From Planctomycetota bacterium (GTDB lineage Bacteria; Planctomycetota; UBA8108), in assembly GCA_965659285.1 (NCBI GenBank), contig CBFHWB010000002.1, positions 3,435 to 67,434 of the forward strand: a stretch of DNA of 64,000 bases, in the 5' to 3' direction. This document shows, one piece after another, positions 2,992 to 8,805 of this stretch. How positions within the stretch are numbered: position 1 is the first letter of the stretch; each line of letters opens with the position of its first letter. The notes below the pieces were generated by a model. The model made no database searches. It worked only from the letters and a program-made list of their open reading frames with translations, and was not told the DNA's origin. The position numbers and the translations under genes were made by a program.

Positions 2992-4368
2992 TCAGGTCTT
3001 CGTACGGAAGTGGATGCTCTTTCGCCGTGTGAGGTGAAGGTAGCCGTAGGAGGAGAGGGTCGAGCCCTTCCCGCTGTCGCCGTAGCCCGTCCAGGGAAGC
3101 GCGGGGTCGAGAAAGTCGCTGCGGTTCTGGAAGATGGTTCCGGCATCGAGTGAGCGTGCGAAGCGCTCGGCCCTGTCCTGGTCGCTGGTCCAGATGGACG
3201 CGGTCAGGCCGAAGCGGGTGTCTCGCATGTGGGCGAGCGCCTCCTCGTCGCCGGAGACCGCGAGCACGGGCAGGATCGGGCCGAAGCTCTCCTCCTGCAT
3301 GACGGCGGCCTCGTTCGGCGCTCCGGCCAGGAGGGTCGGCTGGAAGAAATTCCCGGCGCAATCCGGAGTCCGGGCGCCGCCGGCCAGGAGGCTCGCCCCG
3401 CGGGAGACCGCGTCCTGGACCTGCTCTTCGAGGAAGTCGAGAGCGCTGCGGCTCGCCAGCGGGCCGATGGTGGTTTCTTCCTCGAGCGGGTCGCCAGGGC
3501 GATAGGCCTCGAGGGCCTCCCGGGCTCCGGCGAGGTAGTCGTCGAGGAGGGACTGATGTACGTAGACCCGCTCTACGGCGCAGCAGGACTGCCCCGCGTT
3601 GTAGCAGGCTCCGTCGACGGTATTGGCGATGGCGAAGTCGAGGTCGGCATCCCGGGCGATGTAGGCCGGGTCTTTGCCGCCGAGCTCGAGGCCGACATCG
3701 ATGAAACGCTCGGCGGCCTGGCGGTAGACCGCGCGTCCCCCCTCCACCGAGCCGGTGAAGGAGAGGTGGTTGACTCTCGAGTCGGCGATCACGCCGGCGG
3801 TCGCCTCGTGGGTGAGGACGAGGTTTGTTACCAGCCCGGGAACCTCGAGCTCGCCGAAGGCCTCCTCGAAGGCCTGCCCGCAAAGCGGTGTCTTCGCGCT
3901 GTGTTTCAGCAGCACCGCATTGCCGGCCGCGAGCGCCGGGACAATCACGTTGACCGGGATGATCAGCGGATAGTTCCAGGCCGCGAGATTGAAGACGACG
4001 CCGAGCGGGGCGTGTTCGATGCGTCGATGGAGATCATCTACAGGAGGGAGGCTCTCGGGAGAGAGAGTCTGCGGTGCGATCTCCAGCATGTGGTCGGCGC
4101 GCGCGAAGACGGTGTTGACCTCGCCGTGAGCCTGTGCGATAGGCTTGCCCATCTGGCGCGAGACGTCCGTCGCGATCCGTTCGGAATGGGCCCGGAAGCG
4201 TTCCAGTCCCTGGCGAACCTGTTCGATACGCTCGCCGAGAGAAACCTGCCGCCAGCGTTCAGCGGCGCTGTGCGCCGCGGCGATCTTCGCCTCGAGCGCG
4301 GCCCCTTCATCGTAGTCGAGACTGCAGACAACGCTCTGGTCAAAGGGATTCAGGACATCGAGAGGCAT
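2992..4368 (-). CDS. NAD(P)-dependent aldehyde dehydrogenase
   Basis: 458 aa. Contains the ELGGK motif and the catalytic-Cys region GQSCCAVERVYV, with ALDH family length and architecture. It is the last gene of a co-directional operon with the SDR, hydrolase, GS-like ligase and permease. Confidence 0.85.
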   Translation of the reverse strand: MPLDVLNPFDQSVVCSLDYDEGAALEAKIAAAHSAAERWRQVSLGERIEQVRQGLERFRAHSERIATDVSRQMGKPIAQAHGEVNTVFARADHMLEIAPQTLSPESLPPVDDLHRRIEHAPLGVVFNLAAWNYPLIIPVNVIVPALAAGNAVLLKHSAKTPLCGQAFEEAFGELEVPGLVTNLVLTHEATAGVIADSRVNHLSFTGSVEGGRAVYRQAAERFIDVGLELGGKDPAYIARDADLDFAIANTVDGACYNAGQSCCAVERVYVHQSLLDDYLAGAREALEAYRPGDPLEEETTIGPLASRSALDFLEEQVQDAVSRGASLLAGGARTPDCAGNFFQPTLLAGAPNEAAVMQEESFGPILPVLAVSGDEEALAHMRDTRFGLTASIWTSDQDRAERFARSLDAGTIFQNRSDFLDPALPWTGYGDSGKGSTLSSYGYLHLTRRKSIHFRTKT

Positions 4369-4372
4369 CCGC

Positions 4373-7275: not shown

Positions 7276-8805
7276 TCATTCGACTCCATTCTTACCGTCG
7301 AGCTCGCCGAGGTGTTTAGCGAGGAGGGCGACCTCCTCTTCGGGCGCCTGGGCCACGAGCTTGTGACGGCTGTAAAGAAGATAGTAAACCATACCGAGCA
7401 CAAGAAATGCCCCGACCCCGTAAATACCGGGACGGAAATCTTCCCGGTAGATCGTGGCTCCCAGCGCGGCGATGGAGAGCAGGGCGCCGAGCGCGGCTCC
7501 CGGAATTCCCAATGGACTCCGATAGGGGCGCTCGAGATCCGGGCGGGTGATCCGCAGCTTGATATAGCTGAACATGACCAGCGCGTAGGAGATCACCGCT
7601 CCGAAGACCGCCATGTTGAGCAGGGCGCCACCAACAGCTGTAGGGACCACCTCGCCGCTTTCACTTTCTTTTTCGCCAAGGAAATGGAGCACGAGCGCGC
7701 AGGCGAGGCCGATCACGGCTCCGAGGATGAGGGCGCGATGAGGCGTTTTCTGTCCGGAGGTTCTTGATATCCAGCGTGGAAAATAGCCCGCTCGCGAGAG
7801 AGCGAAGAGCACTCGTCCGTAGGCGTAGATGATCGTATGGAAGCTGGCGATCAGCCCGGTCAACGCGATGAGAGTCAGGAAGAGGGTCGTTCCACCCGAT
7901 CCGAAGATCGCCTTGAAGCCCTCTCCCAGCGGCGCGTCGGACTCCTGGATGGCCAGGGCGCCGCCGCCGATACCGGTGTTCAGAACAAGGGTGAAAACGG
8001 AGAGCGCCAGCAAGGTGATGATGCCGAGGATGAGCGCCCTGGGCATGTCTCTGACTACATCGTGGGTCTCTTCCGCCGCCAGCGGCAGCTGCTCAATCGC
8101 CAGGTAGAACCAGATCGCGAAGGGCAGGGCGAGGAAGACGCCGCTCCAGCCCTTCGGCAGCCATCTCGGATCCTGCCCTTCTTCCGCCGGTATGTTGAAG
8201 AGGAGCTCCGGATCGAAGCTCCCGGAGACCAGCGCGCTTACATAGAAAACAATGAGCACCGCCAGCGCGGCGAGGGTAATCACCAGGCCGACCTTCAGGG
8301 TCAGCTCGACGCCTCGAATGTTGATGGTGACAAAGCAGAGGTAGGCCAGCACCCACCAGAGCGGGTCGTAGCCGCTGAATTCTTCACCGGTCAATCCTCC
8401 AACGAGGTTATTCATGTAGCCGCCGATCCCGACAACGATGACCGCCGGGGTGATGACGTATTCGATCGCGTCGGTGAGCCCGCAGATGAAGCCGCCGGTG
8501 GGGCCGAAGGCGTTTCTCACGAAAGAATAAAACCCCCCGGCATGGGGGAGGGCGGCAGAGAGCTCCGCGATGCTGAAAACCATGCAGACATACATCACGG
8601 CCATTACAAGCGTGGCGATGGCGAGCCCCCAGAAACCTCCCGCCTCCAACCCGAAGTTCCAGCCGAAATAATCCCCTGAGATGACCGCCCCTACTCCGAG
8701 CGCCCACAGCAGCACCCAGCCCGCGCTCTTTTTAAGCGAGCGTTTCTCTAGATAGTCGCTGTCGACGTTTTCGTAACTTGCCAGGCCGGATTTCTTGTCT
8801 GACAT
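7276..8805 (-). CDS. APC-family amino acid/amine permease, ethanolamine permease (Eat)-like
   Basis: 12-TM APC architecture. The N-terminal region (YLEKRSLKKSAGWVLLWALGVGAVISGDYFGWNFG) resembles the ethanolamine permease subfamily. Start set at MSDKK, the tool ORF minus 19 codons. First gene of the operon. Confidence 0.65.
   Translation of the reverse strand: MSDKKSGLASYENVDSDYLEKRSLKKSAGWVLLWALGVGAVISGDYFGWNFGLEAGGFWGLAIATLVMAVMYVCMVFSIAELSAALPHAGGFYSFVRNAFGPTGGFICGLTDAIEYVITPAVIVVGIGGYMNNLVGGLTGEEFSGYDPLWWVLAYLCFVTINIRGVELTLKVGLVITLAALAVLIVFYVSALVSGSFDPELLFNIPAEEGQDPRWLPKGWSGVFLALPFAIWFYLAIEQLPLAAEETHDVVRDMPRALILGIITLLALSVFTLVLNTGIGGGALAIQESDAPLGEGFKAIFGSGGTTLFLTLIALTGLIASFHTIIYAYGRVLFALSRAGYFPRWISRTSGQKTPHRALILGAVIGLACALVLHFLGEKESESGEVVPTAVGGALLNMAVFGAVISYALVMFSYIKLRITRPDLERPYRSPLGIPGAALGALLSIAALGATIYREDFRPGIYGVGAFLVLGMVYYLLYSRHKLVAQAPEEEVALLAKHLGELDGKNGVE

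Follow-up and report, generated by a model that had tools for sequence, protein, structure and literature searches.

Organization of the locus

The present work concerns a compact block of five genes found in a 64,000-nucleotide stretch of DNA from a Planctomycetota bacterium (contig CBFHWB010000002.1 of assembly GCA_965659285.1), hereafter called the window; all positions given below are those of the window. A first-pass annotation, made from the sequence alone, had described the block as a tightly packed minus-strand operon with gaps or overlaps of at most 15 bp, and had proposed that it serves the catabolism of an amino alcohol, probably ethanolamine, by gamma-glutamylation, following the GlnA4 type of pathway and not the Puu type. 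We observed that five intact open reading frames (ORFs), all on the minus strand, lie within positions 2992-8805. Using Pfam and NCBIfam models, we assigned their products to the following families.

8805..7276, minus strand: Eat-type permease, 509 amino acids, first gene of the operon
7275..5896, minus strand: ligase of the glutamine synthetase (GS) family, 459 amino acids
5880..5143, minus strand: Peptidase_C26 hydrolase, 245 amino acids
5146..4373, minus strand: short-chain dehydrogenase/reductase (SDR), 257 amino acids
4368..2992, minus strand: aldehyde dehydrogenase (ALDH), 458 amino acids

The packing of the genes is as tight as had been described. The stop codon of the permease gene directly abuts the ATG of the ligase gene (0 bp), 15 bp separate the ligase and C26 genes, the C26 and SDR genes share a 4-bp ATGA overlap, and a 4-bp gap lies between the SDR and ALDH genes. 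Such junctions imply one transcript and translational coupling, so that the five genes would be transcribed together. The block is flanked by a convergent gene ending at position 2984 and by a 213-bp intergenic region, on the other side of which a divergent gene starts at position 9019.

A ligase 97% identical to that of the window is encoded on twelve contigs of independent metagenome assemblies, and the three of these loci that were inspected (3/3) share all five genes, their order and their flanks with the window. In the nearest GTDB species representative, a Planctomycetota metagenome-assembled genome (MAG; locus L001), this arrangement recurs and the ligase is 93% identical. Since the same layout is found in independent assemblies and in L001, the block is neither an assembly artefact nor a chance run of ORFs.

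An in-frame ATG at position 8862, with which the permease ORF opens, was considered as the start of the gene and rejected: the orthologue in the related locus L003 begins at the equivalent of position 8805 and the two sequences are unrelated further upstream. For this reason, and because a promoter-like site overlaps position 8862, the start was taken as 8805, in agreement with the first-pass annotation. This site is the following.

8858..8885, minus strand: promoter-like TTGCGA, 16-nucleotide spacer, TATGAT, located about 50 bp before the permease ATG

It is kept in L001 and is the sole match in the region, which corresponds to chance level (1 found, 0.8 expected); it gives a weak indication of a promoter candidate. 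When the surroundings of the operon were scanned for terminators, the terminator-like matches were all inside coding sequence. A scan with Rfam detected neither a riboswitch nor any other RNA in the vicinity of the operon, and no regulator gene adjoins it. The G+C content at third codon positions is 0.79-0.85 in the four enzyme genes (2992-7275) and 0.64-0.78 in the other window genes sampled. This could reflect codon bias or a foreign origin, and is too weak a sign for a claim of recent horizontal transfer.

The permease

The permease reaches 415 bits against TIGR00908, the equivalog model for ethanolamine permeases, whose curated cut-off is 381.75, and 128 bits against the next-best model. 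Its Pfam match is AA_permease_2, within the APC superfamily. The window permease shares 64% identity with the product of a Thermomicrobium roseum gene that PGAP annotates as eat and that adjoins a GS-SDR pair, and only 22% with PuuP of E. coli. The orthologues from L003, from L064 (a Pirellulales MAG) and from Thermomicrobium also score above the TIGR00908 cut-off. By these matches the protein is an Eat-type ethanolamine permease (TIGR00908, TC 2.A.3.5), as the first-pass annotation had proposed, and members of this subfamily have the same neighbours in relatives.

The ligase has lost the ammonium site of glutamine synthetase

The product of the second gene contains the Gln-synt_C domain (315 bits with the Pfam model) and falls below the cut-offs of all three NCBIfam models, namely GlnA (TIGR00653; 234.6 bits for a cut-off of 429.15), type III GS (222 for 470) and gamma-glutamylputrescine synthetase (NF045547; 210 for 650). 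In the comparison with solved structures it reaches 448 bits with 11zs and 418 bits with 5dm3, which according to its PDB entry title is Csal_0679 of Chromohalobacter salexigens, whereas the structures of true GS, GmaS and naphthylamine GS each give at most 163 bits. The BLASTP identities of the ligase are 47% with Csal_0679, 46% each with the Brucella protein and the ligase of the Streptomyces cluster, 45% with that of Ruegeria, and 27% and 29% with GlnA and PuuA of E. coli, respectively.

We then compared the active sites on an alignment numbered on E. coli GlnA. The metal-binding residues (E129, E131, E212, E220, H269 and E357) and those binding ATP and glutamate (G265, H271, R321, R339, R344 and R359) are all kept. 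The ammonium site, on the other hand, is lost: E327 of the flap is replaced by Trp, N264 by Ala and D50 by Pro. The E327 position is occupied by Phe in Csal_0679, in the Brucella protein and in the protein encoded by the Streptomyces plasmid pKVP1. Likewise, GlnA4 of Streptomyces coelicolor has F331 at this position and has lost D50 (PMC6529630).

A neighbour-joining tree was built from Kimura distances with 200 bootstraps and two outgroups, PuuA and GlnA. The window ligase is found in a clade of its own, made of 22 sampled sequences (96% bootstrap). The proteobacterial sequences, including Csal_0679, form a separate clade (100%), as do the actinobacterial ones (100%), and PuuA and GlnA fall far outside. 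In keeping with the first reading of the locus, the protein does not cluster with bona fide GlnA. It is predicted to be an ATP-dependent gamma-glutamyl:amine ligase and, more precisely, a gamma-glutamylethanolamide synthetase.

Within the window clade the branching departs from the organismal phylogeny; for instance, the copies from Woeseiaceae and from an 'Acidobacteria' MAG are sister to the planctomycete copy of the window (86% bootstrap). This mixing of phyla suggests that the ligase clade has spread horizontally, as a GS-SDR module.

PDB 11zs, the nearest solved structure, was determined by cryo-EM and is entitled 'glutamine synthetase from Brucella melitensis' in its 2026 entry. We observed that this protein has Phe at the E327 position and clusters with Csal_0679 in the tree; its probable activity is that of an ethanolamine ligase and not that of a glutamine synthetase.

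The hydrolase and the two dehydrogenases

The three remaining proteins have kept the catalytic motifs of their families. The C26 protein, a class I glutamine-amidotransferase-like protein of the PuuD type, matches PF07722 with 204.5 bits. Its nucleophile is Cys106, within GICRG, and its His-Glu pair belongs to WHPE (207-210). The identity amounts to 39% with the corresponding protein of the Streptomyces cluster and to 33% with PuuD of E. coli. The protein is predicted to be a gamma-glutamyl amidohydrolase acting on gamma-glutamylglycine.

The SDR is a classical one, with the Pfam domains adh_short and adh_short_C2 and the motifs TGGGGGIG, NNAG and YTASK. An Asp follows strand beta-2 (VATD), and for this reason the enzyme is probably NAD-dependent. 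The protein is 71% identical to its counterpart in Allomeiothermus, 65% to that of Thermomicrobium roseum and 55% to that of the Streptomyces cluster, and we predict that it is a gamma-glutamylethanolamide dehydrogenase.

The ALDH matches Aldedh of Pfam with 408 bits and contains the motifs ELGGK (Glu228) and GQSC (Cys262). Its identity is 43-45% with the ALDHs of the proteobacterial and Allomeiothermus clusters, 31% with that of Streptomyces and 30% with PuuC. Its predicted function is that of an NAD(P)-dependent gamma-glutamyl-aminoacetaldehyde dehydrogenase.

Distribution of the arrangement among relatives

A scan in which each species was represented by one genome gave at least 584 relatives of the ligase, and the best 80 (64-93% identity) were taken for neighbourhood counts. 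Only loci with enough flanking DNA were counted, hence the differing denominators. The best 80 of these at least 584 relatives belong to Planctomycetota, Chloroflexota, Acidobacteriota, Nitrospirota, Bacteroidota, several proteobacterial groups and others; a copy 62% identical is also present on a Deinococcota plasmid. The ligase and the SDR are unusually conserved between very distant phyla, with 64-76% identity.

Co-location of the genes recurs, to a degree that depends on the gene. An SDR orthologue (at least 60% identity) lies within 6 kb of the ligase gene, nearly always directly downstream, in 60 of the 74 best-80 loci counted and in all 20 planctomycete ones (20/20). The C26 gene is found downstream of the ligase gene in 29/72 loci (planctomycetes, 17/20) and a similar ALDH near it in 18/63 (planctomycetes, 8/19), and an Eat-type permease gene stands directly upstream in 8/74, seven of them among the 19 planctomycete loci (7/19). 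On these counts, eat-GS-C26-SDR is a core that recurs among planctomycetes, being present in seven of 19 species representatives, and the full set with the ALDH is rarer. The claim of the first-pass annotation that the arrangement would be unusual for this lineage is not supported by these planctomycete counts. Most of the non-planctomycete loci have neither a hydrolase nor an ALDH adjoining.

Among the best-80 loci, the complete set of five genes is present in L001 and in L064. In the latter, about 2 kb (9365-11345 of that locus) are inserted between the ligase and C26 genes of an otherwise complete eat-GS-C26-SDR-ALDH set.

Comparison with known systems

The route by which ethanolamine is degraded through gamma-glutamylated intermediates has already been published, for C. 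salexigens in 2015, for GlnA4 of S. coelicolor in 2019 and for Phaeobacter in 2023. In S. coelicolor, genetics and an in vitro assay established that GlnA4 (SCO1613) makes gamma-glutamylethanolamide and is specific for ethanolamine; the subsequent reactions were ascribed, as a proposal, to SCO1611 (SDR), SCO1612 (ALDH) and SCO1615 (amidotransferase-like hydrolase), and in other Streptomyces the GlnA4 cluster includes a permease (PMC6529630). According to the Phaeobacter study, the homologous cluster, whose ligase is Csal_0679 in C. salexigens, has been demonstrated to be an ethanolamine pathway in that species and in A. tumefaciens (PMC10132767). The Phaeobacter cluster itself is induced on phosphatidylethanolamine, and its TRAP solute-binding protein binds ethanolamine (PMC10132767).

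The closest parallel in gene content is the actinobacterial GlnA4 cluster (SCO1610-SCO1615, and the clusters of Streptomyces viridifaciens pKVP1 and of a plasmid of Arthrobacter sp. U41). In the annotated records of pKVP1 and U41, a regulator of the GntR/FCD type precedes permease-GS-C26-ALDH-SDR. All five protein classes of the window block recur there, C26 and SDR included, and in pKVP1 the five genes are co-directional with the permease in front; the ligase of the cluster lacks E327 and D50, and the chemistry proposed for the pathway likewise ends in glycine and glutamate. However, the window ligase is only 46% identical to the actinobacterial one, belongs to a separate clade and has Trp instead of Phe in the flap. 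Moreover, the Streptomyces permease is of the TIGR00907 type and that of the window of the Eat type (TIGR00908), the ALDHs are non-orthologous (31%), the order of the SDR and ALDH genes is reversed, and the GntR/FCD-type repressor adjacent to the actinobacterial clusters has no adjacent counterpart in the window.

In the proteobacterial cluster (Csal_0679; MED193_10026-10056 of Phaeobacter) we find the same ligase superfamily (47% identity to Csal_0679), the same type of ALDH (43-45%) and the same intermediates and end products. The layout in Paracoccus, Sinorhizobium and Ruegeria is an RpiR regulator, then a hydrolase of the formylglutamate amidohydrolase (FGase) family, a TRAP or APC transporter, GS, ALDH and an Fe-dependent alcohol dehydrogenase (Fe-ADH). 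The roles of the Fe-ADH, of the FGase-family hydrolase and of the TRAP or TIGR00907-type transporter are filled in the window by SDR, C26 and Eat proteins, and a homologue search of the 64-kb window detected no FGase, Fe-ADH, RpiR, FCD-type regulator or TRAP.

On a plasmid of Thermomicrobium roseum, GS, SDR and eat genes adjoin one another, and their products are 50%, 65% and 64% identical to those of the window, respectively. This uncharacterised cluster differs in lacking C26 and ALDH genes and in having the permease gene last.

The Puu system of E. coli (puuPADRCBE) follows the same gamma-glutamyl shuttle logic, with a GS-like ligase, an ALDH and a C26 hydrolase. Unlike the window block, it needs the flavin oxidase PuuB and the transaminase PuuE and acts on another class of substrate; the identities to its ligase, ALDH and hydrolase are 29%, 30% and 33%. 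By tblastn, no PuuB, PuuE or PuuR was detected in the 64-kb window at E ≤1e-3, which bears out the earlier remark that a PuuB-type oxidase is missing. In the Ipu route of Pseudomonas for isopropylamine and alaninol, the GS-like IpuC gamma-glutamylates a small amine, a P450 hydroxylase acts on the gamma-glutamyl amide and the amide is hydrolysed later. The likeness to this route noted in the first-pass annotation does not agree with the gene content, since none of the five genes encodes a P450.

Ethanolamine as the probable substrate

We propose that the block is a catabolic operon with which the cell draws nitrogen, and in part also carbon, from ethanolamine via gamma-glutamylated intermediates, and we put the probability of this reading at roughly 0.78. 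It is favoured because the permease passes the ethanolamine-permease model, the ligase has lost its ammonium site and is much closer to Csal_0679 and the actinobacterial cluster ligases than to GlnA or PuuA, the enzyme set fits the route proposed for SCO1611, SCO1612, SCO1613 and SCO1615, the catalytic motifs are kept, the co-location recurs in relatives and the window is devoid of PuuB, PuuE, FGase, Fe-ADH and TRAP homologues. The GlnA4-type interpretation of the first-pass annotation is thus upheld by family models, residues and identities.

In such a pathway, ethanolamine would be imported by the Eat-type permease. At the expense of ATP, the ligase would activate glutamate at its gamma-carboxyl group and couple this group to the amine, giving gamma-glutamylethanolamide. 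The free hydroxyl would then be oxidised by the SDR, probably with NAD+, to gamma-glutamyl-aminoacetaldehyde, and the latter by the ALDH to gamma-glutamylglycine. Finally, the C26 amidohydrolase would release glycine and regenerate glutamate. The reactive amino-aldehyde would remain masked as an amide throughout, and the route would require neither the B12-dependent ammonia-lyase nor a microcompartment.

Several observations weigh against this proposal. The substrate of the permease is predicted from a family model. The ligase clade, which contains no characterised enzyme, stands next to both characterised groups of ligases and not within either of them, the identity being about 46%. The actinobacterial group was represented in the comparison by cluster ligases and not by the assayed SCO1613. 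The flap Trp is aromatic, as is the residue of GlnA4 and Csal_0679, but it is a different residue and matches that of PauA7, an enzyme of broader specificity which has W296 at the flap position and has lost E327 and D50. Many relatives have the GS-SDR pair alone, with no adjoining ALDH or hydrolase, and in others the ligase gene stands beside other transporters, of the TIGR00907-type APC, ABC or TRAP kinds. Lastly, the roles of the SDR, the ALDH and the hydrolase in the later steps are predictions in Streptomyces as well.

The best of the alternatives keeps the logic of the pathway and changes its substrate to another primary amino alcohol, such as 3-aminopropanol (giving beta-alanine), alaninol (giving alanine), serinol or 4-aminobutanol (giving gamma-aminobutyrate), with the permease and the ligase pocket tuned accordingly. 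The separate position of the uncharacterised ligase clade, apart from both ethanolamine-specific groups, the Trp in the flap and the coupling of the same ligase and SDR to different transporter types in relatives would all agree with it, and the SDR and ALDH would oxidise any terminal CH2OH. Against it, the permease and its orthologues in L003, L064 and Thermomicrobium exceed the ethanolamine-permease cut-off, and both characterised sister groups act on ethanolamine, GlnA4 being reported as specific. Furthermore, no other amino alcohol approaches ethanolamine in natural abundance. We consider another amino alcohol possible, if unlikely.

It is also conceivable, though we find it rather improbable, that the ligase-SDR pair is a distinct, uncharacterised gamma-glutamylation module, whose substrate may not be ethanolamine or whose product may enter another end route; the planctomycete operon would then be a lineage-specific completion of this module. 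This is suggested because the pair is so conserved across phyla (64-76% identity), is often found without an ALDH or a hydrolase, and has a ligase with Trp in the flap.

Two other explanations appear very unlikely to us. The operon might mainly detoxify ethanolamine or amines, or make a gamma-glutamyl compound, and not support growth; GlnA-like enzymes of Streptomyces also guard against toxic amine levels, and many relatives have no adjoining ALDH or hydrolase. However, an importer in first place and a hydrolase regenerating glutamate are the layout of a catabolic cycle and not that of a sink. The block might equally be a Puu-like system for putrescine degradation in which the SDR substitutes for the oxidase PuuB, given that the ligase, the PuuD-type C26 protein and the ALDH parallel puuA, puuD and puuC. 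An SDR, however, is unable to deaminate the free amine of gamma-glutamylputrescine. We rejected this PuuB-less variant on the ligase score (210 bits for a cut-off of 650, and 29% identity to PuuA), on the type of the transporter, which is Eat-type and 22% identical to PuuP, and on the lack of PuuB, PuuE and PuuR in the window.

The idea of a true, ammonium-assimilating glutamine synthetase of the GlnA type I surrounded by unrelated neighbours finds some echo in the Gln-synt_C domain and in the complete metal, ATP and glutamate sites, but was dismissed as the least probable of all, since the protein fails TIGR00653, has E327, D50 and N264 replaced, is only 27% identical to GlnA, scores at most 163 bits with solved true GS and 418-448 with 5dm3 and 11zs, and is encoded by a gene that abuts the permease gene and keeps synteny with the SDR gene across many phyla.

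Significance of the locus

The operon is a new example of an already described route; as a system it is ordinary and would not surprise a specialist. None of the eight open-access papers that name the pathway intermediate or the first enzyme deals with Planctomycetota or with the broad ligase clade, and the locus, as read here, would extend the gamma-glutamylation route to Planctomycetota. Ethanolamine, derived from phosphatidylethanolamine, is a widespread source of nitrogen and carbon, and this route would allow its use without B12, a microcompartment or free acetaldehyde. The comparison of the clusters also depicts a pathway built from interchangeable parts: uptake may fall to an Eat permease or to a TIGR00907-type APC, TRAP or ABC transporter, oxidation of the alcohol to an SDR or to an Fe-ADH, and the final hydrolysis to a C26 or to an FGase-family protein. 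For annotation, it indicates that thousands of entries named 'glutamine synthetase family protein' probably serve this catabolic function and not ammonium assimilation.

Other features of the window

The convergent gene on the other side of the operon (3-2984, plus strand) encodes a large planctomycete-type protein with F5/8 type C, DUF7133, HEAT and cytochrome c domains, and is clipped by the start of the window; 7 bp separate its stop codon from that of the operon. Relatives of this protein have 1288 amino acids and an N-terminal ThuA domain.

The divergent gene upstream of the operon (9019..9570, plus strand) contains an in-frame TGA at positions 9187-9189. The TGA and both its flanks (G-[LV]-C-Y-I-TGA-[VA]-G) are kept in L001 (86% protein identity) and in L003 (46%). 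In full-length homologues of about 180-208 amino acids, a Cys is found at the TGA position, after a signal peptide (CYVC, CYRC or CLYC). Many database entries of this family are fragments beginning just past the motif, the gene having been split or clipped at the TGA by gene callers. The protein gave no match with Pfam. A hairpin is predicted in the 60 nucleotides after the UGA, with some compensatory changes; its single-sequence fold is non-significant. The search for Sec machinery was confined to tRNAs, and no tRNA gene was found in the 64-kb window. From the conserved TGA and its Cys counterparts, the product is likely a CxxU selenoprotein that is secreted and belongs to an unnamed CxxC family.

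Further along the window, Rfam detects a cobalamin riboswitch at 30088-30332 on the minus strand (109 bits), upstream of an ORF (about 30087..28729) which gave no Pfam match. A squalene-hopene cyclase (30613-32736, plus strand) and an MMPL-family transporter (35940-38633, minus strand) are encoded a few kb apart, a pair consistent with hopanoid synthesis and export.

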